A DNA stretch of 64,000 nucleotides from Actinophytocola sp. (GCF_036378875.1 NZ_DASUVO010000140.1:30864-94863); one strand, 5' to 3'. Positions 8,264-44,385 are shown, counted from the stretch's first letter. Notes: a model not told the origin generated them from the letters alone. Numbers and translations are program-made.

Positions 8264-8417
8264 TCGACAGAGCCAAAGCGCACGGGCAGGCACTGGTGTC
8301 CCTGGCCCGCCTCCCCGGGGGGTGTCCCCGGGTCTTCCACTGGCGCGACCGCACCCCGGGCGAGGCGAAGGTTGTCGTGTCACCTCCCCTCCGGTCACAG
8401 CGAACAGGAAGATCGTC

Positions 8418-27800: not shown

Positions 27801-28265
27801 CCGGGCGGTCTCGGCCGCGGCGAACTCGGGGTACCCGAGGTCCTCCAGCACCGGCCCGCGCCACTGGGCGAGCGCTTCCCGCAGCAGGCCCGCCGCCCGC
27901 TGCGGGTCACCGAGGCCGAGGGACTCCTGCCCCAGCCCGGCGGTCCGCTCGAACCGGTACGCGTCGACCTGCTCGGGGGCCAGTCGCAGCCGGTAGCCCG
28001 GGCGCTCGGTGACGAGCGCCTCCGCGTACGCCAGTAGCCGCTTGCGCAGGTGGGACACGTGGGTGCGCAACGTGACCTCGGCGGCGGCCGGTGGCGTCGG
28101 ACCCCAGAGCGCGTCGATCAGCCGCCCGGCCGGGACGACCCTGCCGAGGTTCAGTGCCAGCACGGCGATGAGCTCACGCTGCTTCGGGCCGCCGAGGTCG
28201 AGCTGGACTCCGTCGGCCACCGCCTCGAGCGGGCCGAGGATGCCGAGCCGCAGTCCGGGCGTCAC
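24855..28265 (-). CDS. AfsR/SARP-type regulator: OmpR-like wHTH + BTAD + AAA/NB-ARC + TPR
   Basis: LGILGPLE, LRTHVSHLRK, VDAYRFE, HPYRERFCGQLMLALYRSGRQ (BTAD), Walker A GEAGVGKT and GGNPLY. Likely start is GTG 28265. Confidence 0.9.
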   Translation of the reverse strand: MTPGLRLGILGPLEAVADGVQLDLGGPKQRELIAVLALNLGRVVPAGRLIDALWGPTPPAAAEVTLRTHVSHLRKRLLAYAEALVTERPGYRLRLAPEQVDAYRFERTAGLGQESLGLGDPQRAAGLLREALAQWRGPVLEDLGYPEFAAAETARLDELRLVALEGRIEADLALGRHQEVISELEALVADHPYRERFCGQLMLALYRSGRQVDALTVYAAARQRLADELGLDPGPALAELETAILRHDPTLAPRADHAARPAGTPAVAPPDALLSVARRVRLVGRSAELGRLLDLWRAVRDGDRRVVVVSGEAGVGKTRLVAEFAHLVAADPAVVLVGRCDHATAVPYQPVADALRSSVDAAAVLAGAPEAVRDRLAALLDLPAESRADARAEDREAVFGAVGWVLARLAALAPVAVVVEEAERVDRASALLLGHLIRHLPGHVLVAVCFRDPPGGRHGPLLELLAEIGGRGVAERLDLRPLSEEDLGALVAELIATDPPEGFVRQLWHNTGGNPLYATEVVRDLDSRGELGGHGWPVPAGVRDILRHRLRGLPERTQDVVGRAAVLGREVEFSLLLRLADESEDDLIDAVEDAVGAGFLVVSGSSWTVSYAFPHDLMRDAVYADLPVPRRRRLHVRAATALLESERSSDVVTAAVHLRAAGPAADPVQAAEISLRAADEARRLYAWDAAIAHAEAAVGLLTNANAPPGRLADAEVRAAMLRIRSSIGYRDAVRLLESALEHTQDDSAAASVHGRIGGALSTHHSVMDIPRAIEHFTAARRLREDGGPDFQMLRGLAQAAMYGLRTDLLGTASADAMALAEELDRRDLGVLAAWGRGWFAFNRGELAEAAAAFERGWAAAHALGDAYLSWGAVNAAALCATEYLLDPGAGRMWCRRGLTQARFDTFRFPHDTVVDQLVLAAAAMGELRVALRAAEPLPADAVSRRFLLLLDGEWERAEQAWAAALAADESAGDRHDAVLNACWLAGARLLLDDRDGALTALGQALALAVDGPQVPAELLVRAELARVHATGGEADTAAEHLSRCDEILAGGEDWRGRLGAVELARGALAAARGRPGESDAAHENAVRVFTELRLPWRRALALRDWARVSDDPAPRLRAAAEVLDEIGAAGRWRDLL

Positions 28266-28679
28266 CAGTGAAAAGTACGCGTTCGGAACCGGAAACGGCG
28301 TGCTCGGTCGCGGAGTGCGTGTCGCAGGTGGACGCAGTGGAATGCCCGAACCACAAGGATTCTCGTCGCCGGTGGCGGTGGCCTGGCGCTCGCGCAGGCG
28401 CTGCACCACGCCGGGCTCGAGGTCGTCTACGAGCAGGACCCGACACCCCGCACCCGGAACCAGGGCTACCGGATCCATCTCGACCCGACCGGCAACGCGG
28501 CCCAGATGTTCGCGGCGACCTGATCAGCCTCCTGCCGGCCGTGAGCTGAACTCAAGTCGATTCGTGGATCTAGCTCAACCATCCACATGACATGGCGTGC
28601 TTCGGACACATGACTGTCCAACTGAGATGAATTCAGTTAACCTACGGCACTGGCGACGTTGCCGCGAAGGAGAACCGCC

Positions 28680-30207: not shown

Positions 30208-31043
30208 CCACCACCAAGCCGGACCACAACACGATGCTCGCCGCGATCGAACTCGCCAACCGCGCACCGTCGGTGTGATCGGTGACAACTCGGCGCACCT
30301 GATCGCCGACGCACCCATCAGCTGGCGGCGACCGACCCCGAGGGCAGGGACCTGCTGTCGCGCTCGCCGGCACGATCCCCCGACGCCGCACGGACCGCCG
30401 CCGCTTCACCTCCTGGGGAGGTGCCGGCCGACCACCTCGACGTCATGGTCCGCGAAGCAGCCCAAGCCGGTGCACTGCTGGTGCCGGTCACCGACAGCGC
30501 CACCCGGTGGCAGCTCACCCGCGCCATCGATCTCGCGGCAACGCAAGCAGGCAGCCAACCCCGACTACCAGGTGGAGCTGGCCGCGTGGAGCGGGCGCGG
30601 CTACGCCGCCCAGGACGGCCTACTCAACGCCAGCACTCCCGTCGCACCGGTGCGGCACGACGACACCGCGATGCGCGCCTTCCCCCGAGGGTCGCTCGCC
30701 AACGCACCGACCGGCCGGGGCGAGCAGGACGGCGGTGAGCTGCTCGTGCTCGCCACCCAGCAGGACGACCCGGTATCGCTGCTGCGTGCAGGTGAAGCGG
30801 CTAGTGCCGCGCTGCTGACGGCCACCGACCTCGGGCTCGCGACCTGCCCGCTGTCGCAACCGCTCGAGATCACCGACACCCGCGCCACCATCCGCGACCA
30901 GGTCCTCGACGGCACCACCCACCCCCACCTGATCCTGCGCGTCGGCTGGGGCGCCCATCTCGGCGCCCCCGCTGCCGCACAGCCCTGTTCGCCGGACCGA
31001 GGACACCGTCGACTACCTGCCGGGCACCCTCAGAAGGGCGTGA
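30204..31043 (+). pseudogene. Acg-family FMN-binding nitroreductase-like gene, degraded
   Basis: MTTTKPDH...ANRAPSV then TGA (30276-30278) where HNTQPW is expected. Downstream Acg segments (DYQVELAAW, DDPVSLLRAGEAASAALLTAT, LILRVGW) are spread over several frames. Confidence 0.8.
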
Positions 31044-31140
31044 CCATCCACATCACCGCCCCCGGTGATCGCCGGCCGCGACGACTTCGTGTTCCCGTCT
31101 GTGGACGACGCGGCTCGTCGCCCATCCCTGGACAGTCGGG

Positions 31141-32919
31141 TCAGCTCAGGGGTCCGGCAGGCGTGGCCATTCCGGCCCCTTCGAGCGCGGTGGCGGCGAC
31201 GGCACGCATGCGGCGAAGCAGCCTGGTCGTCACCGGGCGCACGCGCGGATGCTCGCCACCGTTTGCCGCGGCCTCGTCCTGCCAGCGCTTCTGCCGCGCC
31301 GCGAACGTCGCCGGATCGGCCAGCTCAGCGCAGTCGAGGGTGTCGTGGTCGATGTCCACGGTGATCGTGTCGCCGTCCTCGATCAGGGCGATCGGGCCGC
31401 CCAGTGCCGCCTCCGGCCCGACGTGACCGATGACCAGGCCGACCGAACCACCGGAGAAGCGTGCGTCGGTCATCAGCGCGACGGCGATGCCCTTCTGGCG
31501 GCACAGGGCGGTGATGCGGGAGGTCGGGTCCAGCATCTCGGGCATACCGGGCGCGCCACGCGGGCCCTCGTAGCGGATGACGACCATGTCCTGGTCGGTG
31601 AACACGTCCGGGGTGTCGATGAGCGCCGCCAGCAGGTCCTGCTCGCTGTCGAACACCCGTGCCCGCCCGACGAAGCGGTTGTCCACGAGGCCGGCCTCGA
31701 CACCGGCCAGCTTGATCACCGCGCCACCGTTCGGGGCGATGTTGCCCGCGAGCAGGCGAAGTCCACCCGTCGGTTTGAAGGGGCCCGCCACGCCGAAGAC
31801 GACCTCACCGTCCGGCGCTGGCGGGTCGAGCCGGGCGATCTGCTCGGACAGCGTCTCGCCCGTGCAGGTCAGGGTCGAGCCGTCGAGGACGCCGTGGCCG
31901 AGGAGTTCCTTGACGATCACCGGCAGGCCACCGACCGCGTCGATGTCGACCATGCTGTACTTCCCGAACGGACGGGCGTTGACCAGCACCGGCACGTCCC
32001 GGGAGAGCTTGTTGAACTCCTGCTGGGACATGACCTCGGTCCAGAAGTCGATCCCGGCACCGCGAGCGATCTCCGGTGCGTGCAGGACGACGTTGGTCGA
32101 GCCGCCCATCGCGATGGCCACGATCGTGGCGTTGCGGAACGCGGCCGGGGTGGCCAGGTCACGGGGAGTGATCCCCCGCTGGGTCATGATCTCCAGGCAG
32201 TCCACGAGCTGCTCGGGGAACACCTCGACCCGCCGCGGGTCCTCCGACGCCGGCGACACCATGTGCAGCGGCTCCAGCCCCAGCATCGCGATGAACGACT
32301 GCATGGTGTTGTACGTGAACATGCCCCCGCAGCTGCCGTACCCGGGACAGGCGTTACGCGCCCAGCGCTCACGCTTCTCGGTGTCCGGGTCGCCCGCGAC
32401 CTGGAAGCAGCTGACCAGGTCGATCGTCTCGCCGGTCAGCGGGTCCGTGCCAGGGCGGATGGAGCCGTCGGAGAGCACGACCGCCGGGACGTTGCGCTCC
32501 AGGACCGCCGCGGTGGTGCCGACCGGCGGCTTGTCACACGCCACCACCGCGATCACACCCCGAATGTCGCTGCCCTCGAAGTGCAGCGACAGGCCGTCGT
32601 TGGTGGTCTCCCGGCCGATCAACGAGTAGCGCATCTGCGGCGTGCCGTTGCGCTGGCCGTCGGAGATCCCGCCCGAGTAGTTGGGCGCCAGCAGCCGCAC
32701 CGGCAGGTCACGCTCGGCGATCCGGCGGCCCATGGCCGCCTGGATGGCCTCGACCTTCTCGTTCACGCCGATGTAGCAGACGCTGTCACCCAGCGTCCCG
32801 ACCACACCCCACGGCATCCCGTGGATTTTGTCGACGTCCTGCCCCAACACCCGCGCCGTGGCCACCGCCTGACAGTCCTGACCAGGCCGCCACACCTCCT
32901 GGCCGCTCGACTCGCTCAT
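31141..32919 (-). CDS. IlvD/Edd-family [Fe-S] dehydratase
   Basis: VACDKP, CPGYGSCGGMFTYNTM, AMGGSTNVVLH, GNIAPNGGAVIK, RYEGPRGAPGMPEM and TDARFSGGS...GHVGPEA. The N-terminus is shortened and divergent. Confidence 0.9.
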   Translation of the reverse strand: MSESSGQEVWRPGQDCQAVATARVLGQDVDKIHGMPWGVVGTLGDSVCYIGVNEKVEAIQAAMGRRIAERDLPVRLLAPNYSGGISDGQRNGTPQMRYSLIGRETTNDGLSLHFEGSDIRGVIAVVACDKPPVGTTAAVLERNVPAVVLSDGSIRPGTDPLTGETIDLVSCFQVAGDPDTEKRERWARNACPGYGSCGGMFTYNTMQSFIAMLGLEPLHMVSPASEDPRRVEVFPEQLVDCLEIMTQRGITPRDLATPAAFRNATIVAIAMGGSTNVVLHAPEIARGAGIDFWTEVMSQQEFNKLSRDVPVLVNARPFGKYSMVDIDAVGGLPVIVKELLGHGVLDGSTLTCTGETLSEQIARLDPPAPDGEVVFGVAGPFKPTGGLRLLAGNIAPNGGAVIKLAGVEAGLVDNRFVGRARVFDSEQDLLAALIDTPDVFTDQDMVVIRYEGPRGAPGMPEMLDPTSRITALCRQKGIAVALMTDARFSGGSVGLVIGHVGPEAALGGPIALIEDGDTITVDIDHDTLDCAELADPATFAARQKRWQDEAAANGGEHPRVRPVTTRLLRRMRAVAATALEGAGMATPAGPLS

Positions 32920-33005
32920 CCACCCATCCCCTCGTCCGGTACCGTCGCCAGCCTCCCGATTATCAGGCCGGGCGTCAGTGCGGGCTCGGGCGCACCCACC
33001 TCGTG

Positions 33006-34118
33006 TCACGCCGACCACGTCGGCACGGCGGGTGAGTGGGTGTAGAAGTCGCGGTGAGCGATGGCGGCGCGGCGCCAGGTGTAGGTCGCCGCGAGCAGGC
33101 GGCCCGCGGTCGGCTCGGGTCGACGGGTGAGCATGCGATCCATAGCCGTCGCGATGTCGTGGACATCCGCGGCGAACGCGACGGAACCGCCGGCCCCCGC
33201 GAAGACCTCTCGTAGTACCGGGAGGTCACGTGCGACCACGGGCACTCCGGCGGCCAGTGCCTCCATCGCCGCGAGTCCGAATCCCTCCTTCGTGGACACC
33301 ATCGCCAGCGCGGACGCCTCCGCGACCAGCGCGGGCAGCGCGTCTTCCTCGAGAACGCCGGTGATCACCGGCTCGACTCCCAGCTCGGCCGCACGGGCCT
33401 CGAAAGCCGCGCGGTACTCGCGGTAGTCGAAGAGCGTTTCCCCGCCGCCGATCACCAGTCGCAGGTCGGGGTGGTGGCCCCGCAGGAGGGCGAATGCCTC
33501 CAGCAGGTCGATGGATCCCTTGCGTGGCTCGATTCCGCCCAGCGCGAGGACATAGCGGCCGAGTTCGGCCCGCCACCGTTCTCGGCCGGCGGCGTCGTCG
33601 GCCGCCGCGGCGAAGCGGGCAGCGTCCACGCCGTTGGGGATGACGGTCGGTGTGAGGCCCCAACGCCTGTTGACCTCGTCGGCTACCGACGCCGACACGC
33701 AGATGCGGGCGGTCGGCTCGACGACGGCTCGTTCGTGGCACCTCGCGAGTTCCGGGGTGGTGAAGTCGTCGAGGTGGTGGATGGTCCGCAGGCACGGGAG
33801 CGCGGCGTTGGCGCTGATGCAGTCCTGTGCGTGGACGATGTCGTAGTCCGTCCTCGCCAGCGAGAAGGCTTCACGCAACACCGCTATGGACCGGACGATG
33901 CGTTCGCCGACGGGCTCGTCCTCGGCGGCGTGGAAGGGCACCGTGTGCACCGTGACGGCAGGGTCGACCGGTCGGAAGAAGGTCGTGTCGCCGCCGCGGC
34001 CCAGGGTCCAGACGTGGACGTCCTCGCCGAGTTTCGCGAGTGCCTCGGCCAGCGCGAGGGTGTGCACGACGCCACCGCGTGGGCGGGTGGAATAGGTGAG
34101 GAGAGCGATGCGCGTCAC
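33006..34118 (-). CDS. MSMEG_0565-family glycosyltransferase (GT4)
   Basis: VTRIALLTYSTRPRGGVVHTLALAEAL, HAQDCISANA, GGIEPRKG and EGFGLAAMEALAAG; GTGA overlap with the upstream gene. Confidence 0.9.
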   Translation of the reverse strand: MTRIALLTYSTRPRGGVVHTLALAEALAKLGEDVHVWTLGRGGDTTFFRPVDPAVTVHTVPFHAAEDEPVGERIVRSIAVLREAFSLARTDYDIVHAQDCISANAALPCLRTIHHLDDFTTPELARCHERAVVEPTARICVSASVADEVNRRWGLTPTVIPNGVDAARFAAAADDAAGRERWRAELGRYVLALGGIEPRKGSIDLLEAFALLRGHHPDLRLVIGGGETLFDYREYRAAFEARAAELGVEPVITGVLEEDALPALVAEASALAMVSTKEGFGLAAMEALAAGVPVVARDLPVLREVFAGAGGSVAFAADVHDIATAMDRMLTRRPEPTAGRLLAATYTWRRAAIAHRDFYTHSPAVPTWSA

Positions 34119-34948
34119 GAGGTGCTCCGGTAGGTCTCCGGCTTGAGCTCGGTGAGGTGGTGCAGCACGCGGCGTGCGGTCGCGATCTCGGCGGCGACAT
34201 CCAGTTCCGCCACCGCGATGCCCGCCTTCGACCACGTGCGGGCGAGGATGTCGCCGCCTGGGCCGACGACCTTGGCCTGGCCGAGGAACCGCATCCCGCC
34301 CATCGTGCCGGTCTGGTTCGACGACGCGAGCACCACCTGGTTCTCGGCTGCGCGGGCGCAGTCGTAGAGGTCGAACAACCGCGACTGCCGGTCCTGTGCC
34401 ATGCGGGGCGAACGGTTGGTGATGCTCGTCGGCCAGGCGGACAGGCACGCGATGATGTCCGCACCGTCGACGGCGAGGCTCCGCGCGGACTCCGGGAAGG
34501 TCTTGTCGTAGTCGATGAGCATGCCGATCCGCCCTACCGGGGTGTCGAACGCCGCGAAGGAGTCACCCGGCGCGTAGACCGCGGCCTCGCCCAGCGGTTG
34601 GTGCACCTTGCGGTGCCTGCCCAGCACACCGTCACCGTGTACGCACACCGCCGCGTTGAACCGCTTGTCGCCGTCCAGCTCGCAGTAGCCGACACACACG
34701 ACCATCTCCCCCGCCAGCGCCGCCACCTTCGCGAGCAGCGGGTGGTCACGCTCGAGCGCGGGCGGCAGCGCGTCCGGGTCGGGCTGCCGCAGGTCGGCGA
34801 GGTACCCGCCGAGCGCGGCGTCCGGCAACACCAGCAGCTGTGCGCCGTCCTGACGAGCGTGCTCGATCAACGTGCCGATGCGCTGCAGGTCGAAGTCGAG
34901 GTCACGCCCGAAGTGCGCAGCCACAACCGCGATCCGTGTTGGAGACAT
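34115..34948 (-). CDS. Carbon-nitrogen hydrolase fold protein lacking catalytic Glu and Cys (probable pseudoenzyme)
   Basis: LVLPDAALGGY (E to D), HRKVHQP (K kept) and GMLIDYDKTFPESAR (C to D), read directly from the codons at 34501-34530 and 34801-34840. Confidence 0.88.
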   Translation of the reverse strand: MSPTRIAVVAAHFGRDLDFDLQRIGTLIEHARQDGAQLLVLPDAALGGYLADLRQPDPDALPPALERDHPLLAKVAALAGEMVVCVGYCELDGDKRFNAAVCVHGDGVLGRHRKVHQPLGEAAVYAPGDSFAAFDTPVGRIGMLIDYDKTFPESARSLAVDGADIIACLSAWPTSITNRSPRMAQDRQSRLFDLYDCARAAENQVVLASSNQTGTMGGMRFLGQAKVVGPGGDILARTWSKAGIAVAELDVAAEIATARRVLHHLTELKPETYRSTS

Positions 34949-34955
34949 GGGCGCA

Positions 34956-35789
34956 TCATCCCGTCCAATGTGGTGGGTACGCCTCGGGCCTGCGGTCACG
35001 GAGGTGGCCCATCGACCGCCGTGCGGTCTCCAGTGCCGCCGTGACGTCCAGCTCCGCGATCGCGACGCCTTCTGCCACACCGGTGTCGGCGATGATCTCC
35101 CCGCCCGGCTCGACGATCTTGGCGCTGGCCACGAAGCGTAGGTCGCCGAACGTGCCGGACTGGTTCGCCGACACCCACACCACCTGGTTCTCCAGTGCCC
35201 TTGCCCGGTCGAACAGGTCGAACCGGCGCTTCCAGCGGTCCTCGGCGAGGTCGGCGGCGGCGTTGGTGCGGCTGCCCGGCCACGCGGACACGCAGACGAT
35301 GATCTCCGCGCCGTCCAGCGCGAGTGCCCGCGCGGACTCGGGGAACGCCTTGTCGTAACAGATCATCATGCCGAGCCTGCCGACCGGCGTGTCGAACGCC
35401 GTGAACTCGGCACCCGCGCCGTAGTTCGCGTCCTCCGACAGCGGCTGGTGCACCTTGCGGTGGTTGCCGAGCACACCGTCCCCGGTGACGCAGACCGCGC
35501 TGTTGTAGAGCCGCTCCCCCGCGTCCTCGCAGTAGCCCGCGACCACGACCATGTCACCAGCCAGCGCGGCCACTCGCGCGATCTCCGGGCCGTCCAGGCG
35601 AAGCGGCGGCGGGCCATCGGCGCCACCGTCCAGATTGGCCAGATAGCCGCCGAGTGCCGCCTCGGGTAACGCGAGCAGGCCAACGCCCTCGGCACGTGCC
35701 TGCGCGACCAGCTTCTCGATCCGCGCCAGGTCCGCGTCGAGGTCGCGGTCGAACGGTGCTGCCACCGCGGCCATCCGCACGACGCTCAT
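34956..35789 (-). CDS. Carbon-nitrogen hydrolase (nitrilase/amidase superfamily), intact triad
   Basis: LALPEAALGGY, HRKVHQP and GMMICYDKAFPESAR give the Glu-Lys-Cys triad. Confidence 0.9.
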   Translation of the reverse strand: MSVVRMAAVAAPFDRDLDADLARIEKLVAQARAEGVGLLALPEAALGGYLANLDGGADGPPPLRLDGPEIARVAALAGDMVVVAGYCEDAGERLYNSAVCVTGDGVLGNHRKVHQPLSEDANYGAGAEFTAFDTPVGRLGMMICYDKAFPESARALALDGAEIIVCVSAWPGSRTNAAADLAEDRWKRRFDLFDRARALENQVVWVSANQSGTFGDLRFVASAKIVEPGGEIIADTGVAEGVAIAELDVTAALETARRSMGHLRDRRPEAYPPHWTG

Positions 35790-37180
35790 GCCCGTCCCAA
35801 TCCGGTCACCCCGGCGGGGACGACCTCTGTCAGTGCGCCGTCCGGCCAGCGCAACCACACCCCGCCGCCGGCGACGAGTTCGCCGCAGTCCGCCGTCACC
35901 GCGGGCCCGGCGGGCGGCACCGGCGCTGCCGGCGCGTCCGCCGTGAGCATCGCGAAGCCGGGGAAGCAGGTCAGCCAGTCGCCCACGGTCGCGTGTGCCG
36001 GGCGCGGCACGGCGGCGACGTCGAGGATCGCGCCGCACCCGCTGGCCTCGGCGAGCATGCCGAGCGTGCCCGCGACACCGGCCATCGAGACGTCCTTCGC
36101 GGCGGCGGGCCGCACAGCACCGACCGAGGCCAGCATGGTGCGCAGCTCACCCGGCGTGCGGCTTGTCGTCGAGTCCCACTGGCGGCCCGTGTAACCACGC
36201 CGCCAGCGACCGCCGAGGTCGGCGGTCAACCGTACGGTGTGGCCGGGTCGGCCTCCGCCCCCTGGCACGGGGTGACGGGTACGGCCGAGCGCGGTGACCG
36301 CCAGCGCGGCGGGCACGCCGAGCTGCGTGTGACCGCCCAGCACCGGCACGGCGTAGGCCTCGCTCGCCTTCCGCAGACCGGCGAGCACGCGGCTGGCGAA
36401 GGAGGCGTCGCGGGCACCGAGCGCGTCCAGCAGTCCGACCGGCGTGGCACCCATTGCCGCCAGGTCGTTGACGTTGACCAGTACCGAGCACCAGCCCGCC
36501 CACTCCGGGTCACGCTCCACCATGGACGGCACGATCGCGTCGCAGGCCGCGACCAGATCACTGCCCGGTACGGGAACGCCGTCGTCGCCGACGAACCCCG
36601 GCACGCCGGGGAGCCCGGTGAGCAGCGGGCCGAGCGCGCTCTTCGTGGCGGCCGCCAGCGCCGCGATCCGCCGGATCGGCTTGCGCATGAGGACGTGCGG
36701 CGTGCCCGCGACCGTCACCGGCCCCACGGCTTCCCAGCCCAGGCGCGCGAAGAACCGCTCGTTGCTCGCCTGCACGGTCGCCTCGAACCGGAGCACGCCA
36801 GCGCTTTCCGCGTGCACGCAGGCGGCGTCGACCAGCGCGGAGCCCACGCGGTGCGTCGACCGGTAAGCAGGGTCGACGACCAGCCGCCCACCCTGCCACC
36901 AGCCGAGGTCCACGCCGCCAGTGACCGGGCCGAGCCGGACACCGCCGAGGACCGTGCCACCGGCGTCGCGGGCCACGAGGACGACCGTGCGTGGGTCGTC
37001 GTCTCGCTCGTCGAGGTCGTGGCGCGGGAAGAGCCCTTGCTGCTCGACGAAGACAGCATGGCGGAGCCGGTGGTAGGCGGCGAGCGTCGCCGCGTCCTCG
37101 GCGACCTCGATGGTGAACGCCGGCCCGCGGGCGACACTCGCGGTGTCGCCCAGCAGTACCAGCACGTCGGCCATCGTCAT
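35786..37180 (-). CDS. MSMEG_0567/sll0787-family GNAT + AIR-synthase(PurM)-like fusion (NitE-NitF-like)
   Basis: GNAT part YHRLRHAVFVEQQGLF...WWQGGRLVV...FEATVQ; PurM-like part GDDG, VNVNDLAAMGA, GGHT and KDVSMAG. Confidence 0.9.
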   Translation of the reverse strand: MTMADVLVLLGDTASVARGPAFTIEVAEDAATLAAYHRLRHAVFVEQQGLFPRHDLDERDDDPRTVVLVARDAGGTVLGGVRLGPVTGGVDLGWWQGGRLVVDPAYRSTHRVGSALVDAACVHAESAGVLRFEATVQASNERFFARLGWEAVGPVTVAGTPHVLMRKPIRRIAALAAATKSALGPLLTGLPGVPGFVGDDGVPVPGSDLVAACDAIVPSMVERDPEWAGWCSVLVNVNDLAAMGATPVGLLDALGARDASFASRVLAGLRKASEAYAVPVLGGHTQLGVPAALAVTALGRTRHPVPGGGGRPGHTVRLTADLGGRWRRGYTGRQWDSTTSRTPGELRTMLASVGAVRPAAAKDVSMAGVAGTLGMLAEASGCGAILDVAAVPRPAHATVGDWLTCFPGFAMLTADAPAAPVPPAGPAVTADCGELVAGGGVWLRWPDGALTEVVPAGVTGLGRA

Positions 37181-37181
37181 C

Positions 37182-38237
37182 TCAGCCTCCTGCCGTCGAG
37201 AGCACGCTGCACGCACCGCATGCCGCGCAGCCCGCCTGCTGGTCGGCGCCACGCATGCCCGCCGCGTGCAGCAGTTGACCGACGCGCCGCGTGACGTCCG
37301 CCACGAGCGACGCGGGTGGCGCCACCGCCCCGTCGCGGCGGGCGAGCGTGCCGAGCATCGGGCGCATCGGCACGACGAACGGGTACACGCCCCGCTCGAT
37401 CAGCCGGGCCGCTCCGGCGACGAGGTCGTCGGGATCCTCGCCGAGACCGATGAGCAGGTACGTGGACACCTGGTTCCAGCCGAAGACACGGACCGCCTCG
37501 TCCCACGCGGCCTCGTACTCGGCCAGCGGCACGGTGGACTTGCCGGGCAGCCAGTGCTTTCGCACGTCGTCGTCGAGCGACTCGACGTGAATGCCGATCG
37601 AAGTCGCGCCGGCCTCCTTCAGCTCGGCCAGCACACCCAGGTCACCCGGCGGCTCGATCTGCACCTGGACCGGCAGCCCGGGAACCGCCGCCAGCACGGC
37701 TCGAACGCAGCGCGCCAGGGTTTTCGCGCCACGGTCTGGACCCTTGGTCGTGCCGGTCGTGAGCACCATCTGCCGCACCCCGTCCAGCCGCACCGCGGCC
37801 TCGGCCACCTCGGCGAGTTGGGCCGGGGTCTTCGCGGCGACGGTGGCGCCGGCCCGCAATGACTCCTCGATCGCGCAGAACCGGCACCGCTGGTCCTCGG
37901 CGTAGCGGACACACGTCTGCACCACCGTGGAGGCCAGGACGTCCTTGCCGTGCAGCAGCGCGATCTGCCGATAGGGGATGCCGTCCGCGGTCTCGAGGTC
38001 GTAGAACCGCGGCCGCCGCACCGCTTCCACGGACAGGCCAAGGTCGAGCGTTCCTTTGTGGACACGTCCGTCCCTGACCGTGTACGGGCTCTCGGGGTCG
38101 AGCGGGATCGCCGCGTTGGCGCCGTCCACGACGAGATGCCCGTCGTCGCTCGGGCCGGCACCCTTGTGACGGGTGACCGGCGCGGCCAGGTTGACGCCGC
38201 GCACGGCCAGGTCAGCTCGAATGTCTACTACGGACAT
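37182..38237 (-). CDS. MSMEG_0568-family radical SAM protein (NitD-like)
   Basis: GAGPSDDGH, QTCVRYAEDQRCRFC (Cx8Cx2C), LTTGT, GIHVES and a C-terminal AGCAACGAC. Confidence 0.9.
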   Translation of the reverse strand: MSVVDIRADLAVRGVNLAAPVTRHKGAGPSDDGHLVVDGANAAIPLDPESPYTVRDGRVHKGTLDLGLSVEAVRRPRFYDLETADGIPYRQIALLHGKDVLASTVVQTCVRYAEDQRCRFCAIEESLRAGATVAAKTPAQLAEVAEAAVRLDGVRQMVLTTGTTKGPDRGAKTLARCVRAVLAAVPGLPVQVQIEPPGDLGVLAELKEAGATSIGIHVESLDDDVRKHWLPGKSTVPLAEYEAAWDEAVRVFGWNQVSTYLLIGLGEDPDDLVAGAARLIERGVYPFVVPMRPMLGTLARRDGAVAPPASLVADVTRRVGQLLHAAGMRGADQQAGCAACGACSVLSTAGG

Positions 38238-38241
38238 TCGG

Positions 38242-38754
38242 TCACCACATGTAGGTGGAGTTGATGATCGCGCCCTTGCGGGCGTAGTGAATGAGCGCGT
38301 CCTGGACGTCGAGCGGGTGCGTCGGGATGACACCCTCGATCAGGTCCTCCTCGCGCAGGCCGTGCAACGAGAGCCCGAAGCGGCAGCAGTAGACCTTGCC
38401 ACCTTCCTTGATGAACGTCTTGAGCTGGTCGTTGATGTTGTGCTCGCCGGGGAACGCCGAGTTGCCGGTGGTGGGGAAACCTCGGGTGGCCATGCAGTTC
38501 ATCGCGCCGGGCCCGTAGAAGTAGATCGCGGACTCGAAGCCCTTCCTCAGTGCGCGGGTGGCCTGCAGGATCGCCACGAAGCTCACCGACGACTCGTGGG
38601 CGATGCCGTGGACGAGCGTGAAGTAGGACTGGCCCTCCTCGGCCTGGTAGTCGGGGAAGACCTTGGTGCCGCCGTAGAGGTTCGAGCCCTCGGGCAGCGA
38701 CGGGTGCGGGATCTCGTTCAGGCTCTGTGATTCGAGCTCGGTCAGGTCGGTCAT
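38242..38754 (-). CDS. MSMEG_0572/sll0783-family DsrE-like protein (NitB-like)
   Basis: KVFPDYQAEEG, VHGIAHESSVSFVAILQA, YFYGPG and YCCRFGLSLHGLREEDLIEGV. Confidence 0.9.
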   Translation of the reverse strand: MTDLTELESQSLNEIPHPSLPEGSNLYGGTKVFPDYQAEEGQSYFTLVHGIAHESSVSFVAILQATRALRKGFESAIYFYGPGAMNCMATRGFPTTGNSAFPGEHNINDQLKTFIKEGGKVYCCRFGLSLHGLREEDLIEGVIPTHPLDVQDALIHYARKGAIINSTYMW

Positions 38755-38772
38755 GGTCTGTCTCCTTCGATT

Positions 38773-39600
38773 TCAGTCGTAGAGCTCCGCGAAGGTGTCG
38801 CGGAAGACGAGGTCGGCGAGTTCGCCGTCGCCGGCGACGGCGGCCAGCCGCGCGTACTCGCCGGCGTGGTCGCCCCAGGGTTGGTCGGAGGCGAAGAGGA
38901 TCCGGTCGTGCCCGATGCCGCGGCGCGAGACCTCCTCGGCGAGCCATCGCGGCGTGAACCCGATGGCCCAGGAGAGGTCGGTGTACACGCGTTTGCCCGC
39001 CGCGATCCAGTCGAAGAACCGGCTGCCCGCGAGCTTGATGTGTCCGCTCATGCCGCCGCCGAAGTGCACCAGGTGCACCGCGACGTGGTCGCCGTACCAG
39101 TCGACCAGGTGCCCGACCTCGTCGATGTCCGACGCAGCGCCCGGCGAGGTGTGCACGTGGACGACGAGGTTCCGCTGCCGTGCCACGGCGAAGATCCGGT
39201 CGAGACCGGGACGGCAGTCCTGCTCGGTGGGCCGCCCGCCGAGCAGGAAGCTGAGCTTGAGCGCCCGCACGCCTTCCTCGCCGGCGAGCGTGAGTGCCTT
39301 GTCGGTGCGCTCCCGGTCACGCGGCAGTGGTGACACCCACAGTGCGGCGCGGATCCGGTCGTCGCGCGACGCGGCCTCGACGCAGAGTTCGTTGAACGAG
39401 AACGCGATGTCGGGGTCGGGCACGCCGTAGTTCGGGATCACCAGCGCGCGCTCGGTGCCTTCCGCGTCGAGGTCGGCGATCAGGTCCTCGATCGTGGCGC
39501 GCGCCGTGACATCCGGGCGCACCGGCGGCCCGCCGTAGAAAGGAAACGCGGGCAGTACACCGAGGTGCCGATGCGCGTCGGACAGTCCTTTTCTGGCCAT
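38773..39600 (-). CDS. Amidohydrolase-superfamily metalloenzyme (amidohydro_2-like)
   Basis: DAHRH (HxH), VHVHT, HLVHFGG and FASDQPW metal ligands. Confidence 0.85.
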   Translation of the reverse strand: MARKGLSDAHRHLGVLPAFPFYGGPPVRPDVTARATIEDLIADLDAEGTERALVIPNYGVPDPDIAFSFNELCVEAASRDDRIRAALWVSPLPRDRERTDKALTLAGEEGVRALKLSFLLGGRPTEQDCRPGLDRIFAVARQRNLVVHVHTSPGAASDIDEVGHLVDWYGDHVAVHLVHFGGGMSGHIKLAGSRFFDWIAAGKRVYTDLSWAIGFTPRWLAEEVSRRGIGHDRILFASDQPWGDHAGEYARLAAVAGDGELADLVFRDTFAELYD

Positions 39601-39630
39601 GGGGGAATTCCGTTCTCACGGCAGGAGATG

Positions 39631-40962
39631 TCACGCGACGGTGCGTGGGGCGACCCAGTCGTCGTCGCGGGGGTAGGTCGAGGTCGCCGTGCCGGCGATC
39701 CAGCGCACCTCCGCGCTGGAGGATCGGCGGCCGAACTCGGCGATGCGCGCCGCCAGGTACTGGGCGTCGGCGGCGACACCGCAGAACCGGCCCGAGCCCC
39801 ACGTGTGCTGCCACGGCAGACCGAGGAAGTAGACACCGGGAAAGCTCGTCACGCCGCGATGATGGGTCGGGTAACCGCGACCGTCGAACACCGGGAGGTC
39901 GATCCACCGGTAGTCGGCGCCGAACCCGGTACACCAGACGACCGACCCGATCTCCGCGGCGGCAAGGATCCTCGGCTCGACCTCCGGACGCCACACCGGG
40001 TCATATCGCTTCTCGGCAGGCGCGTCGATGCCCCTGGCGGTCAGACAGGTGTCGATCGAGTCCTTGATGGACTCGGACACGGCGTCCGCCGCGTCGAGGT
40101 TGGCGCGCAGGTCGGCGGCGAAGTACAGCGTGCCGGCGCGGACGTCGACGAGCCTGCCGTAGAGCCGCATGCCGTCGCGGGCGAAGGCACGCAGGTCGAT
40201 GTCCCGGCCCCCGTCGCGGCCGGTGACATAGTGGTTGGCGCGGAACCGCACCGCGTCGACGTCGGCGAACTCGTCGATGCCGCGGCGGTAGTAGCCCATG
40301 TCCTCGAGCCACGCCACCACGTCGCGCCCCCGGTAGCGCCGGGCCACGCGTGGCGCGCTGCCCACCGCGAGGTGCACCCGCCTGCCCGCGAGGTGAAGGT
40401 CCTCCGCGATCTGGCAGCCGGACTGCCCGGTGCCCACGACCAGGATGTCGCCTTCGGGCAGCCGCGCGGGGTTGCGGTAGTCGGCGGAGTGGAGCTGGAC
40501 GATGTCGTCGGGCAGCCGTTCGGCGATACGCGGCACGCGCGGCGTCTGGTACGGGCCCGTTGCCACCACGATCTGGTCCGCCGTCAGCGTGCCCGCCGAG
40601 GTGGTCACCGTGAACCGGCCGTCAGCCTGTTGACGCAACCGGGTCACCGCGACACCTTCGGCAATGGGCACGTCGAAGGACTTCGCGTAGTCCTCGAGGT
40701 AGGCGACGATCTCGTCCCGCGGCATGAACCCGTCAGGATCTCCGCCCGGATAACCGAAACCAGGCAACTGGCACTGCCAGTTCGGCGTGACGAGACAGAA
40801 CGAGTCCCACCGCCGCTCCCGCCACTCGTACCCGACGCGCTCCCGTTCGAACACGACGTGGTCGACACCTGTCCGGGTGAGACAGTGACTCATCGACAGG
40901 CCCGCCTGGCCACCACCCACGACGACCACCGACCGGTGAACGCCCTCCCACTCCCCGGTCAT
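39631..40962 (-). CDS. MSMEG_0569-family flavin-dependent oxidoreductase (NitH-like)
   Basis: [43 protein letters not shown] and WCTGF...[13 protein letters not shown]. Confidence 0.9.
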
Positions 40963-41030
40963 CGCTCGAACCCCGCGACCGGTTGACCGGAACCGCCGGG
41001 CCGGCGTACGAGAAACCGGATTTCGGGCAC
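40959..41030 (-). pseudogene. Collapsed remnant of an MSMEG_0570-family (NitG-like) gene
   Basis: AGGAG RBS + [28 protein letters not shown] (23 aa). It matches the family N-terminus as I recall it (MPExxFxVRWPDG), the CYSPS core is missing, and the ATGA overlap with the next gene is kept. Confidence 0.7.
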
Positions 41031-41116: not shown

Positions 41117-41141
41117 CAACCGATTCATTGCCAATCGGTTG
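41117..41141. promoter_or_regulatory. Perfect inverted repeat CAACCGATT-N7-AATCGGTTG upstream of the Nit1C-like operon
   Basis: caaccgatt cattgcc aatcggttg, about 90 bp upstream of the first gene in an AT-richer intergenic stretch. Confidence 0.6.
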
Positions 41142-41184
41142 CATCCGAACTACGCAGGTGTTTCCGGTGCCGGGGAATTGTTAC
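41138..41184 (-). promoter_or_regulatory. Degenerate GlnR-box-like pentamers
   Basis: The minus strand reads GTAAC-N15-GAAAC-N6-GTAGT-N6-GCAAC. The 11-bp phasing of the canonical GTNAC-N6-GAAAC box is only partly met. Confidence 0.35.
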
Positions 41185-41238: not shown

Positions 41239-44200
41239 TCAGTGGGAAAATACTGCGAGGTCGTAGAGGGAATAGCCGTATCCGGTCCCCCGCCGCACGC
41301 CGACCATGCGGACGTAGCGCGCCTCGGTGGCCTGGAACGTGATGTTGTCGATTCCCCCGTTGCCGGTGCTGGTGGTGTGAACCTGTCGCCACGTACTGCC
41401 ATTGGTCGATGTCTCGATCCGATAGGCCGCGCCGAAGGCGGCCTCCCAGTCCAGTCGGACCCGTGCGACCCGTCGTGTGGCGCCGAGGTCGACGGTGATC
41501 GAGTCGTTGTCGCGCCACTCGCTGGCCCACCGGGTCGTCGGGTCGGTATCGACCGCGTGTGCGGCGGGGTGGCCCGACTGTGCGCCGGTCGCGGTGGCCG
41601 TCCTGCCCAGGGCGAGGTTGGTGATGTCGTCGCCGCGGCGTGCGGGGAACTCCACCACCTGCTGGTAGGTCGGACGGTTCTGCCAGGAGATCTTGTCGTG
41701 GCCGATGCCGCCGATCTTCTGCTGCACGATCGAGTCGGCGCACCACTGGTCGCCGGCCTCGCAGTTGCCCTCGTCGCCGGGGTAGGTCACGGTCAGCGGT
41801 TCGGCCGCGGCGCCGAGCAGCGTGTCGGACAGCGCCTTTCGGCACGCGCTCAGGCCGCCACACAGCGGGGTCGTCGTCTTACCGGCCGGGTTCTCGCCGA
41901 GCACCGCGCGGATGTCCTGTGACACCTGGCCGAACCAGCCGTACTGGAACGCCGAGCCGCTGTGCGGGTGGCCGGTGTTCAGCCCGGGTTCGCCCAGCTG
42001 CCAACCGGACGGCGACTCGTTGATCCGCATGACGCCGGTCAGCGCGCGGTACGCGTCGGCGCCGACCTTCGGCTCGTAGATCGCCTTGACCAGTCGTGGC
42101 CACCACGCGTCGAACAGGGCGATCGCGCCGGCGTGCGCATAGGTGTGGCTGCCCAGGCTGGTCTCGGTGCGCTTGCCGCCGGCGGCCAGCCAGGCGCGCA
42201 GTGTCGCCGCCTGCGCGGCGGTGGCGGGGTCGCCGTCCAGCACGCGCAACAGGTTCGGCAGGATGCGCTCGGCACGCATGTCGGTGACCGCGGCGTCGGC
42301 CATGGCCTGGGTCAGGGTGACCCGGTTGACCTTCCCGCCGTTCGCGATCAGGTCGCGCACCCGCCGGTCGAGCACGTCGCCGCGCTGCACCGAGGACTTC
42401 TCCGGGCTGCCGCTCATGCCCGGCGCCTGCTTGTTGTTCCAGCTGATGTAGTAGTCCTGGTTCACCGAGTTCGGATGCTGCGCGAACGGGGTGTAGGTGG
42501 CCGTGTTGCCGTTCGGGTTCCAGTCCTGCCACTCGTTGGCCACGCCGGACCACGCCGGCAGCGCGGGATCCATTGTGGACTTGCGGACCGGGTTGTCACC
42601 GGAGTTGACGTACGCGACGTCCCGCGAGTCGGCGTAGAACCAGTTGAACGTGTAGTTGACGTCCATCGCCGCCTGCTGGAACTCCTGCGCGGAACGGATC
42701 GCGGCCGGGTCGTTGAACTTCTGGAACCCGATGATGGAGTCGGCCTCGTGGAGGAACGTCGATCGCACGGTGGTGTAGGCGACCGGCTTGCCGCCGACCG
42801 TGGCCCGGTGCGTGACCGGTCCGTACCTCGTCCGGTAGGAACGAAGCGTGTAGGAGCCCGCGGCCGTGCCGTCGGCCAGCGTCGGCGTCCAGGCATTCTT
42901 CCGCTCCACCACGTCGAACGGCAGGCACTCACCGCGGAAGCGGTAGTAGCCGGACGCCTTCGTCGGTGTGCCGCCGTTCGGTTCGCACAGCTCGACGGCG
43001 TAGGTGTCGATGATGTCCTGTCCCGCCGTGGTGGCGCTCCACGCGTAGTCCTGACCGCGGCCGAGCAGGGTGTAGAAGCTCAGTCCGGCGAACGACGCGC
43101 CCCTCGACGAGATCCCCGGCCCCTGCAGTTCCTGCAACGTCAGCAGCTGCGGCGCGAAGTACCCGGTCTGCGGGCCGAACACGGCGACCGGGTGGCCGGA
43201 CTCGGTGTGGGCGCCGGAGACCACCAGCGCGTTGGACATCCCCCGCGCCTGGAACATCCCGGCCGCCGCGGCCTGCTGCTGGGTGGAGACCGCTGACCCG
43301 GTCTGGTCGAACACCATCTGCTGCGGGGTCACCGATCCCTTGTCCGGCAGGGCGAGCCCCTGTGGGTTCGCCGGCGACGCGGCATAGGGGAACGACCGTC
43401 CATCGTGGATGGTGCTGATCGCCTCGGGGTCGTTCTGCGACTGGAACTCCTGCCAGCGCCGCTCGCCCTCCGCGAGGCCGTAGCGCTCCTGCAGCGCGAG
43501 CTTCGCGACAGCCTGCTGCACCTCGTTGCCGCCGCCACCGCCGAACTGCGCGCCGACGAGCGACGCCAGCACGACGATGTCGGTCAGCGTGAACGGCTCG
43601 ATGGTGCCGGCGTTGGTGATCGCGTCGATCTTGCCGATGGCCACGTACTCCCCGGGGAAGTACCGGCCGTCCTTGGCCTGCCTCGCGTAGGCGTTGATGC
43701 CATCCACATAGGCCTGTGCGTCGGAGTACGCCAGCTCGCCGGCGGGCCCCTGCCTGCGCACGCTCTCGATCTGCGCGGTCAGTTCCTGCTCCGTGTAGGG
43801 CGACGCGGCGAAGAAGCCCTGTTCCAGCACGCGGTTACCCTCGGCACCTCCGGCGAACGAGGTCACCTGGCCGCGCCCGGCACGCCGCATCACGTCCATG
43901 AGGAACAGCTTGTTCTCCGCCGTGGCGTACCCGGCGCCGAACATGGTGCCCGACCGGGTGGTCCCGTAGATGTGCGGGACGCCGGCCTTCTTGTCGCGCA
44001 CCACGGTGACGTCCGCGCGCGGCTGGTAGCTCCGCTCGATGTCGTCGGCGGCCACGCCGAACGAGTTGTCGTTGAAGAACTGGGTGATCGTGTCCGTGGT
44101 CAGGGTCTGGTACCCGCTGGCCAGGCTCCCGTACATCCCGAGCTGGTCGGCGGAGTGGGCCGGCCTGGCCCCGCTGACGGTGTGCGCCAGGAGCTCGGCG

Positions 44201-44385
44201 AAGGTCGCGTTGCCGTTCTGTCCCGGTGGCAGGATGTCCGCGCACTGCCCGAGGCAGTAGTCCAGCTGGGATGCCGTCCGCACCGTCACCGGTGCCGCCA
44301 TCGCGGGCACCGTGACCACCGCCGCGACCGCCGCGCCCACGGTCAGCACGCCGAAGGCCCTTTTCGTCCACGAACGACCAGACAT
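41239..44385 (-). CDS. Secreted penicillin-acylase-family Ntn hydrolase with a C-terminal F5/8 type C (CBM32/discoidin) domain
   Basis: Signal peptide ...VPAMA; RDKKAGVPHIYG; beta-chain start RGM/SNALVVSG; WNNKQA; C-terminal NLALGRTATAT...TRWASEW...DLGA...VRMVG...YSLYDL. Confidence 0.9.
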   Translation of the reverse strand: MSGRSWTKRAFGVLTVGAAVAAVVTVPAMAAPVTVRTASQLDYCLGQCADILPPGQNGNATFAELLAHTVSGARPAHSADQLGMYGSLASGYQTLTTDTITQFFNDNSFGVAADDIERSYQPRADVTVVRDKKAGVPHIYGTTRSGTMFGAGYATAENKLFLMDVMRRAGRGQVTSFAGGAEGNRVLEQGFFAASPYTEQELTAQIESVRRQGPAGELAYSDAQAYVDGINAYARQAKDGRYFPGEYVAIGKIDAITNAGTIEPFTLTDIVVLASLVGAQFGGGGGNEVQQAVAKLALQERYGLAEGERRWQEFQSQNDPEAISTIHDGRSFPYAASPANPQGLALPDKGSVTPQQMVFDQTGSAVSTQQQAAAAGMFQARGMSNALVVSGAHTESGHPVAVFGPQTGYFAPQLLTLQELQGPGISSRGASFAGLSFYTLLGRGQDYAWSATTAGQDIIDTYAVELCEPNGGTPTKASGYYRFRGECLPFDVVERKNAWTPTLADGTAAGSYTLRSYRTRYGPVTHRATVGGKPVAYTTVRSTFLHEADSIIGFQKFNDPAAIRSAQEFQQAAMDVNYTFNWFYADSRDVAYVNSGDNPVRKSTMDPALPAWSGVANEWQDWNPNGNTATYTPFAQHPNSVNQDYYISWNNKQAPGMSGSPEKSSVQRGDVLDRRVRDLIANGGKVNRVTLTQAMADAAVTDMRAERILPNLLRVLDGDPATAAQAATLRAWLAAGGKRTETSLGSHTYAHAGAIALFDAWWPRLVKAIYEPKVGADAYRALTGVMRINESPSGWQLGEPGLNTGHPHSGSAFQYGWFGQVSQDIRAVLGENPAGKTTTPLCGGLSACRKALSDTLLGAAAEPLTVTYPGDEGNCEAGDQWCADSIVQQKIGGIGHDKISWQNRPTYQQVVEFPARRGDDITNLALGRTATATGAQSGHPAAHAVDTDPTTRWASEWRDNDSITVDLGATRRVARVRLDWEAAFGAAYRIETSTNGSTWRQVHTTSTGNGGIDNITFQATEARYVRMVGVRRGTGYGYSLYDLAVFSH

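Follow-up and report, generated by a model that had tools for sequence, protein, structure and literature searches.

A gpr-family nitrogen-starvation gene cluster in Actinophytocola sp. and its possible function

The question addressed here is what a compact run of minus-strand genes, homologous to clusters that other bacteria induce when nitrogen is limiting, might do in an actinomycete. It is raised by a stretch of 64,000 nt from Actinophytocola sp. (GCF_036378875.1 NZ_DASUVO010000140.1:30864-94863; the whole of this stretch is called the window), in which the run occupies positions 31141-41030. A first-pass annotation, made from the sequence alone, had read it as an expanded operon of ten genes, related both to the MSMEG_0565-0572 ('gpr') cluster of Mycobacterium smegmatis and to the Nit1C systems, and had proposed that it follows the logic of mycothiol synthesis and serves more than simple catabolism. 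From the comparisons reported below we assign the locus, with high confidence, to the gpr family of nitrogen-starvation operons, in the order that is standard for non-mycobacterial actinomycetes. Concerning its function, the best explanation overall, to which we give slightly more than an even chance, is a nitrogen-starvation operon that builds or remodels a small metabolite.

Identity, gene order and putative control of the cluster

The G+C content of the window is about 70% and lists of open reading frames (ORFs) are full of spurious frames; third-position G+C gives one unbroken minus-strand gene run from 41030 to 31141. The list of ten features, all co-oriented on the minus strand, was confirmed by profile searches and, for the 0570 remnant, by position and end-matching (Table 1). 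Five of the proteins exceed by a wide margin the curated NCBIfam cut-offs of the families MSMEG_0565, 0567, 0568, 0569 and 0572, and the gene order is common among relatives, so that the proposed MSMEG_0565-0572 type is borne out. The locus is thus a further copy of a widespread and already catalogued family, for which curated models exist and which many genome annotations include. The genes had been described as mostly overlapping; the packing is indeed compact, but with junctions, from the remnant of 0570 to the GT4 gene, of -4, +30, +18, +4, +1, -4, +7 and -4 bp, followed by +86 bp to the IlvD/Edd gene, 'tightly packed' is the more accurate description.

To place this arrangement among its relatives we used 80 genome loci selected through relatives of the 0572 protein, with each species represented by a single genome. 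In 0572 all of them reach at least 86% identity, and they are the closest of more than 528 loci with 0572. They come from Pseudonocardiaceae, Micromonosporaceae, Streptosporangiaceae, Streptomyces, Kribbella, Kineosporia and one metagenome-assembled genome of Acidimicrobiia. The proteins of the window were mapped onto these loci, 65 of which had enough flank for order counts, and a Rhodococcus plasmid locus (L001) was taken as the annotated 8-gene reference, standing in for the M. smegmatis locus; a search of a plasmid collection returned distant Rhodococcus copies only. The order [0570]-flavin monooxygenase-Amidohydro_2-0572-radical SAM-GNAT::PurM-CN hydrolase-CN hydrolase-GT4 is exact in 54 of the 65 loci (33 without and 21 with an intact 0570), and it is found also in Carbonactinospora and in a metagenomic relative, L089, with 95% Amidohydro_2 identity. 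The operon is therefore not 'expanded', as had been claimed, since the order of the window is the commonest among its relatives. Amidohydro_2 is present in 60/65 loci and GT4 in 59/65. The flavoprotein and GT4 mark the exact limits of the conserved block; any other flanking gene of the window is shared by at most 3 of the 80 loci, and no conserved transporter was found beside the cluster among them. Compared with the 8-gene form of Rhodococcus and M. smegmatis, Amidohydro_2 has been gained, the flavoprotein has moved to the front and 0570 has often been lost.

Two further observations concern single relatives. Insertions of 1.4-1.5 kb interrupt an otherwise compact operon in L010 (10510-12087) and, between the two CN-hydrolase genes, in L023 and L068. 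The locus L090 (93% Amidohydro_2 identity) carries at 3780-8494, directly upstream of the flavoprotein gene and on the same strand, a five-gene ABC transporter (Peripla_BP_5/6, two permeases and two ATPases), which could be a lineage-specific uptake system.

With the gpr cluster of M. smegmatis (PMC6039565, PMC3662644) the window shares the families 0565, 0567, 0568, 0569 and 0572, a pair of CN-hydrolase paralogues and an upstream box of the GlnR type, while it differs in having the flavoprotein first, an extra Amidohydro_2 gene and 0570 as a 23-codon remnant. A selenocysteine read-through fusion 0571-0570-0569 has been proposed for M. smegmatis (PMC6039565); it was rejected for the window, because the 0571-like gene and 0569 lie four genes apart and because 0570 is mostly absent.

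The Nit1C systems, known from the work of Podar in 2005 (PMC1199592), from Pseudomonas cyanotrophs (PMC11049912, PMC7815647) and from Synechocystis sll0783-0787, are also tied to nitrogen limitation, and the window contains homologues of NitB, NitD, NitE, NitF and NitH, together with the remnant of NitG. In contrast to Nit1C, however, the window is without the Nit6803-family branch-1 nitrilase NitC, in whose place it encodes two different paralogues of the nitrilase superfamily, one of them devoid of the catalytic Cys; NitE and NitF form a single protein; GT4 and Amidohydro_2 are present in addition; and control is predicted to be of the GlnR type and not through the sigma-54 regulator NitA, no sigma-54-dependent activator of this kind being present among the nine flanking ORFs scanned. 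On the model of the Nit6803-family nitrilase (nitrile_sll0784, TIGR04048) the hydrolases score 41.8 (a) and 29.6 (b) bits against a cut-off of 502.6, and neither is a nitrilase of this family. Of the double label 'MSMEG_0565-0572/Nit1C-type' the gpr part holds; since the defining nitrilase is lacking, the locus is, judging from its sequence, related to Nit1C without being a member of it.

Table 1. Predicted features of the cluster, with the adjacent IlvD/Edd gene and the putative operator (window coordinates)
Feature	Position	Strand	Evidence
nitG/MSMEG_0570 remnant, 23 codons + stop	40959..41030	-	end-matching to intact 0570 genes, position
MSMEG_0569-family flavin-dependent oxidoreductase (NitH-like), 443 aa	39631..40962	-	TIGR04046, 649.6 bits vs cut-off 498.35
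Amidohydro_2 TIM-barrel metalloenzyme, 275 aa	38773..39600	-	PF04909, 53 bits
MSMEG_0572/Sll0783 (NitB-like) nitrogen-starvation protein, 170 aa	38242..38754	-	TIGR04044, 259 bits vs cut-off 109.85
MSMEG_0568-family radical SAM protein (NitD-like), 351 aa	37182..38237	-	TIGR04043, 500.6 bits vs cut-off 303.7; NF045502 variant_rSAM
MSMEG_0567 GNAT::PurM-like fusion (NitE + NitF), 464 aa	35786..37180	-	TIGR04045, 108.1 bits vs cut-off 68.45; TIGR04050, 483 bits vs cut-off 312.2
CN hydrolase a (MSMEG_0571-like), 277 aa	34956..35789	-	PF00795, 142 bits
CN hydrolase b (MSMEG_0566-like), 277 aa	34115..34948	-	PF00795, 118 bits
MSMEG_0565-family GT4 glycosyltransferase, 370 aa	33006..34118	-	TIGR04047, 450.5 bits vs cut-off 259.85
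IlvD/Edd-family dehydratase, 592 aa	31141..32919	-	same strand, outside the conserved cluster
Four-site GlnR-like box	41127..41164	-	motif match, 134 nt upstream of the first ORF

Homologous clusters had been said to be induced by nitrogen starvation, and this is supported by the literature: MSMEG_0572 of M. smegmatis has a GlnR peak in chromatin immunoprecipitation sequencing and is induced 263-fold (PMC3662644), and induction of the gpr cluster exceeds 500-fold and depends on GlnR (PMC6039565). GlnR sites of actinomycetes have the layout a-n6-b-n6-a-n6-b (PMC3662644). The strict published pattern GnnAC-n6-GnAAC is enriched upstream of the clusters of the relatives and has no match in the window. 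By aligning the upstream regions of the relatives, an element of four 5-nt sites with 6-nt spacers was found, whose consensus is GTAAC-n6-nTGTT-CCGGAT-GAAAC-n6-GAAAT and which in the window reads GAAAC-n6-GTAGT-n6-GCAAC-n6-GCAAT from 41164 to 41127; its 5-6-5-6-5-6-5 layout agrees with the published a/b-site architecture. The pattern GnAAC-n17-GnAAC-n6-GnnA[TC] occurs a single time in the 64-kb window, and it precedes the first cluster gene in 43 of 75 loci, with 2 matches elsewhere in 2.8 Mb (both strands). This box is a candidate site at which GlnR may bind in the host. Promoter and terminator scans were uninformative at 70% G+C. A perfect 9-bp inverted repeat, CAACCGATT-n7-AATCGGTTG, lies at window 41117-41141 on the minus strand and overlaps the last two GlnR-like sites; none was seen by eye in the upstream regions of 14 relatives, and it may be due to chance or constitute a second operator.

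The first ORF of the run is the remnant of nitG/MSMEG_0570, whose start codon coincides exactly with the end coordinate, 41030, chosen in the first-pass annotation. Too short to be scored by a hidden Markov model (HMM), it was recognised from its position and by end-matching. Its start codon is GTG, with GGAGA as ribosome-binding site, and its stop overlaps the start of the flavoprotein gene in the sequence ATGA, an overlap found also in close relatives, whose intact 0570 proteins begin with VPE[IV]VFRVRWPD and finish with VVEGFER. Its start agrees with that of the intact proteins (VPEIVFRVRWPD...) in 8/12 aa, and in 25/36 nt against L008, and its end with that of ...VVEGFER* in 21/24 nt; over the intact genes of L003-L016, 21-27 of the first 36 nt and 16-21 of the last 24 nt are identical. 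With both ends matching and the ATGA overlap kept, the nitG remnant is genuine, and the alignment indicates that it is an in-frame deletion in which about 70 codons were lost. No other 0570 homologue was found in the window, either by tblastn or with an HMM built from 24 orthologues.

An intact MSMEG_0570 is present in 23 of the 65 loci with enough flank. Among the components by which membership of the gpr family was judged, 0570 is the only one that the window does not possess intact, as in most natural copies, and from these counts 0570 is not a strict requirement of natural family members. The pattern suggests that nitG/0570 may be dispensable once the cluster has this arrangement. Independent decay of 0570 was observed in L002 (7480-7690), where both ends are kept out of frame, in L024 (6975-7145), where the first 47 residues are left, and in L067 (7597-7686), where the first 15 are left.

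The encoded proteins

The two CN hydrolases, a and b, are paralogues, 60% identical to each other. They had been listed simply as two C-N hydrolases; both belong to the PF00795 family, but one of them has neither the catalytic Cys nor the catalytic Glu. In hydrolase a the Glu-Lys-Cys triad is intact in 75/75 orthologues, while in hydrolase b Asp occupies the column of the catalytic Glu as well as that of the nucleophile Cys (D, K, D) in 73/73 orthologues; when b is aligned to the Pyrococcus abyssi nitrilase 3ivz, LPE becomes LPD and ICFD becomes IDYD. Because Asp replaces both Glu and Cys, hydrolase b is predicted to be unable to use the usual thiol mechanism; its invariant positions, 127/277 against 111/277 in a, indicate that it is nevertheless functional. 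The possibility that it is a decaying pseudogene was ruled out by strong purifying selection and by the intact frame in 73 species. The b gene adjoins GT4, as the gene at the 0566 position does in Rhodococcus. The simplest reading is that hydrolase b would be a non-catalytic partner in a hetero-oligomer with a. We know of no nitrilase-superfamily member described so far in which Asp has taken the place of these two residues together.

The Amidohydro_2 protein has no NCBIfam match at 1e-5. It possesses the complete set of metal ligands of its superfamily, in the invariant motifs DxHxH, HVH, HLVH and FASD on strands 1, 5, 6 and 8. The top Foldseek matches of its AF2 model (pLDDT 75.7, pTM 0.81) are IDCase (isoorotate decarboxylase), LigI, LigW, gamma-resorcylate decarboxylase and ACMSD, with TM about 0.6 and identity not above 18%. 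These structural neighbours cleave C-C or C-O bonds and not amide bonds. The TIM-barrel fold and the HxH / His / His / Asp ligand set are common to the window protein and to the ACMSD-type decarboxylases and LigI (PF04909), although the former is shorter (275 aa against about 290-380). As far as the model allows, it resembles the ACMSD/LigI-type decarboxylases and lactonases and not a deacetylase.

Across the 80 species, which belong to many families and several orders, the 0572 protein retains at least 86% identity; it carries the motif GGKVYCCRFG. It had been called DsrE-like, a description that its conserved Cys and Foldseek matches favour, provided that the relationship is understood as remote, because with Pfam DsrE (PF02635) it scores 22.2 bits, just below the gathering score of 22.7. 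Among 10 distant 0572 relatives the same Pfam model gave 1 match above threshold and 3 weak ones. The 12 best Foldseek matches are all DsrE, TusBCD or YchN, which gives weak support, since the AF2 model, built from 31 sequences that are all at least 82% identical, is of low confidence (pLDDT 51). Sequence and profile searches of the PDB found no relative, only CNOT1 at E=0.004, judged to be spurious, and a whole-library profile search, which returned 228 clusters, mostly fragments, found no characterised family beyond the weak DsrE signal. C124, in the CRF motif, does not vary among 31 close relatives and persists in the majority of relatives at 30-44% identity; from the Pfam alignment coordinates this Cys would fall roughly at the active-site Cys of DsrE/TusD, and C124 may be equivalent to DsrE Cys78. 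The sequence similarity of 0572 to DsrE, TusBCD and YchN is barely detectable; unlike these, it carries about 45 additional residues at its N-terminus, and the cluster encodes no partners of the DsrF/H or TusB/C type. Taken together with the model, these data indicate that 0572 is probably remotely of the DsrE fold.

Concerning the remaining proteins, the radical SAM enzyme has a variant C-x8-C-x2-C motif, with C109, C118 and C121 invariant in 75 orthologues; neither for it nor for the Amidohydro_2 protein were relatives of solved structure found by sequence. The 0567 fusion matches AIRS, AIRS_C, Acetyltransf_1 and FeeM in Pfam and conserves the motif NDLAAMGA-P; its C-terminal domain is related to ThiL, HypE and PurM in the PDB and to SelD, and the PDB relatives of its N-terminal domain are an acetyltransferase and, weakly, AHL synthase. 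The flavoprotein matches Pyr_redox_3, FMO-like and Lys_Orn_oxgnase in Pfam, as a class-B-type monooxygenase, and its nearest solved structures are small bacterial flavin monooxygenases (4usq, 4usr, 4a9w, 4c5o).

Candidate functions: biosynthesis, the mycothiol analogy and nitrogen scavenging

The explanation that we prefer is that the proteins of the cluster act as one unit, which would build or remodel a small intracellular nitrogen-containing metabolite and not carry out the plain breakdown of an imported nitrile. GlnR would switch the operon on under nitrogen limitation. The PurM-like domain would use ATP to activate an oxygen of the substrate and the GNAT domain would transfer an acyl group, while the radical SAM enzyme and the flavin monooxygenase would be responsible for difficult chemistry at C-H bonds and heteroatoms. 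The conserved Cys of 0572 might serve as a carrier, or the protein as a docking partner, and the active CN hydrolase would cleave a C-N bond, possibly in a hetero-oligomer with its inactive paralogue. Finally, the actinomycete-specific additions would provide a decarboxylase- or lactonase-like Amidohydro_2 step and then a final glycosylation.

A unit of this kind is suggested, in preference to simple catabolism, because no transporter or other flanking gene is conserved, because GT4 is conserved and its gene overlaps the preceding one by 4 bp, and because the hydrolase paralogue without Cys and Glu is more constrained than the active one. A protein that interacts with many partners would be expected to be as strongly conserved across orders as 0572 is. 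The earlier claim of 'more than simple catabolism' is therefore reasonable as far as the conserved and coupled GT4, the lack of a conserved transporter and the inactive-looking hydrolase are concerned, and is not supported in the part that appealed to mycothiol. As for the physiology of the homologues, its outcome is a higher NADPH/NADP ratio and tolerance to peroxide during nitrogen starvation, and the rise in NADPH/NADP under nitrogen starvation is missing upon loss of gpr in M. smegmatis (PMC6039565) and of sll0783 in Synechocystis. The authors of the M. smegmatis study could not assign the phenotype to single genes (PMC6039565), and the Nit1C nitrilase, poor on all tested nitriles, was proposed to be the core of a complex (PMC7815647).

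The principal alternative is nitrogen scavenging, in which the flavin monooxygenase, the radical SAM enzyme and the PurM-like protein would prepare a nitrile, cyanohydrin, amide or amine from which the CN hydrolase frees NH3. The M. smegmatis cluster is under GlnR, whose regulons consist mostly of assimilation and scavenging genes (PMC3662644); the Glu-Lys-Cys hydrolase is intact in every orthologue examined; nitB and nitC mutants of P. pseudoalcaligenes do not grow on cyanide or aliphatic nitriles; and the close relative L090 has an amide/amino-acid-type ABC transporter directly upstream. Nevertheless, no uptake system is conserved beside the cluster, the conserved GT4 has no obvious place in a catabolic route, and the hydrolases of the window are not of the Nit6803 type. 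Moreover, the Nit1C nitrilase is catalytically inefficient, with cyanide a poor substrate (PMC7815647), and the NADPH/NADP and peroxide phenotypes arise without added nitrile. We therefore regard scavenging as possible, though on balance rather unlikely, and we favour a biosynthetic or remodelling unit over it, a preference held at about even confidence.

Several points weigh against the biosynthetic or remodelling unit. The first-pass annotation had held that the individual reactions and the product had not been settled, and this proved correct: no assigned reaction, substrate or product of any cluster protein was found in the literature searched. GlnR regulons are mainly devoted to scavenging, in which an ammonia-releasing CN hydrolase would fit, and Pseudomonas requires the Nit1C nitrilase and NitB to grow on cyanide and nitriles, which fits catabolism. 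The 80 loci, being the closest of the larger set with 0572, are biased towards the form of the window. The GlnR box is a pattern match, and none of the public sequencing runs searched holds the window sequence, each containing at most 15% of its words. Finally, the assignment of 0572 to the DsrE fold combines a borderline Pfam score with a poor model.

A more specific proposal had been that GT4, metallo-amidohydrolase, PurM-like protein and GNAT reproduce the steps MshA-B-C-D and that, with the DsrE-like protein and the radical SAM enzyme, they yield a glycosylated cofactor or nitrogen carrier. As in the mycothiol and bacillithiol systems (MshA-D; BshA-C), a retaining-type GT4 glycosyltransferase and a GNAT acyltransferase are encoded in the window, here together, and the homologues of the cluster share with these systems a link to oxidative-stress tolerance. 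Outside its own family, MshA is indeed the best curated model and the best PDB match of the GT4, but the score is 66.5 bits against a cut-off of 462.5 (TIGR03449), i.e. only 14% of it and level with exopolysaccharide GT4s and PimA: EpsE gives 64.9 and BshA 55.7 bits, all far below their cut-offs, and in the PDB MshA (7qsg, 4e-12) and PimA (6e-11) are about equal. The GT4 of the window is thus no nearer to MshA or BshA than to polysaccharide GT4s.

For the other steps the correspondence fails. No zinc deacetylase with the LmbE/PIG-L fold of MshB is found among the cluster genes, the candidate being a PF04909 TIM barrel of different fold, whose neighbours are decarboxylases and lactonases. Nor do the cluster genes include a class-I aminoacyl-tRNA-synthetase-like cysteine ligase of the MshC type, the candidate having the PurM/AIRS fold. 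PurM-superfamily enzymes such as ThiL, HypE and PurM phosphorylate oxygen or selenide, and do not ligate an amino acid as does MshC, which is an aminoacyl-tRNA-synthetase-like ligase. There is a single GNAT domain, of its own family TIGR04045, and no match to the MshD model at E<=1e-5.

The distribution of these genes points in the same direction. The Nit1C core has neither GT4 nor Amidohydro_2, and the 8-gene form of Rhodococcus and M. smegmatis likewise does without Amidohydro_2, from which it follows that the four-part logic was not inherited as a unit; the window genes are, unlike the msh genes, clustered and predicted to be nitrogen-regulated. The presence of a GNAT domain, the family-wide conserved Cys and DsrE-like appearance of 0572, and the influence of the homologues on peroxide resistance and NADPH, as might be expected of a thiol cofactor, speak in its favour, but the NADPH phenotype is seen also in Synechocystis, which has neither GT4 nor Amidohydro_2. 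The parallel with MshA-B-C-D comes down to the generic GT4 and GNAT folds, with no homology for the remaining steps, and we consider it improbable.

A variant of the biosynthetic explanation, to which we give an equally small probability, is that the core (0572, radical SAM enzyme, GNAT, PurM-like protein, flavin monooxygenase and CN hydrolase) makes a redox metabolite containing sulfur or nitrogen. The Cys of 0572 would carry an intermediate or donate sulfur, the CN-hydrolase hetero-oligomer would be the scaffold, and the actinomycete genes would add decarboxylation or ring-opening and glycosylation.

The IlvD/Edd gene, the flanking genes and the meaning of the locus

The IlvD/Edd gene had been counted as a member of the operon, and one may imagine a genuine ten-gene operon in which it supplies or processes a sugar-acid or keto-acid intermediate. 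It lies on the same strand, 86 bp downstream, and no terminator-like site was found between GT4 and IlvD, in a scan that is uninformative at 70% G+C, so that read-through transcription is possible. However, an IlvD homologue is present within 10 kb of the cluster in 0/80 loci and beside it in neither of two further loci checked, Carbonactinospora and L089 (0/2), the latter having a convergent gene after GT4. Orthologues 92-95% identical are found in unrelated contexts, in a Logan contig, in Streptomyces caniscabiei and in Amycolatopsis taiwanensis, with about 230-420 bp of intergenic DNA between each of them and its upstream neighbour, and the protein belongs to a large, very widespread orthologous group of its own, being about 73% identical even to proteins of Terriglobales. 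Because it is absent from the 80 loci and has orthologues in unrelated contexts, the IlvD-like gene is, on this comparative evidence, an unrelated neighbour and not a conserved cluster member, and a ten-gene operon seems to us very improbable.

The protein itself has the CDK, CPGxGSCGGM and TDxRFSGG motifs, but it remains below the cut-off on every NCBIfam model for IlvD, Edd and sugar-acid dehydratases (for the IlvD models, TIGR00110 gives 390.6 bits against 618.15 and NF002068 gives 431.4 against 644). Its nearest solved structure is IlvD of M. tuberculosis, aligned from residue 84 on, the N-terminal 83 residues being divergent.

Concerning the other neighbours, upstream of the cluster the window encodes at 41239-44385 (minus strand) a penicillin-amidase-family (Ntn hydrolase) protein, probably secreted, with a C-terminal F5/8 type C (discoidin) domain, a gene that lies beside the cluster in no relative. 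On the other side, about 930 bp (30208-31140) between a CBS/BON-domain gene and the IlvD stop contain no convincing gene; the longest ORF there (30275-31426, plus strand) has no Pfam match and overlaps the 3' end of IlvD. About 2.7 kb downstream of the IlvD stop, a SARP/BTAD-AAA regulator of 1207 aa is encoded at 24855-28478 (minus strand). L089 has a similar BTAD regulator close to its cluster and L082 one close to its IlvD orthologue, and a homologue is present in only 3/80 loci.

The locus does not represent a new kind of system; what the comparison provides is a definition of the conserved block, consisting of eight genes and a GlnR-like box and excluding IlvD, and our results make the IlvD gene and a literal copy of the mycothiol scheme poor objects for further work. 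If the less probable proposal of a redox metabolite were true, it would mean a new low-molecular-weight redox cofactor made only under nitrogen starvation, which would account for the NADPH/NADP and peroxide phenotypes in mycobacteria and cyanobacteria. The Nit1C/gpr module has been known since 2005, is among the most nitrogen-induced loci of mycobacteria and, in two phyla, has an effect on the NADPH pool. For this family the comparison narrows the problem, since 0570 appears to be dispensable in most actinomycete copies, the Amidohydro_2 protein appears to belong to the decarboxylase/lactonase branch, and one of the two hydrolases is predicted to work without the thiol mechanism.

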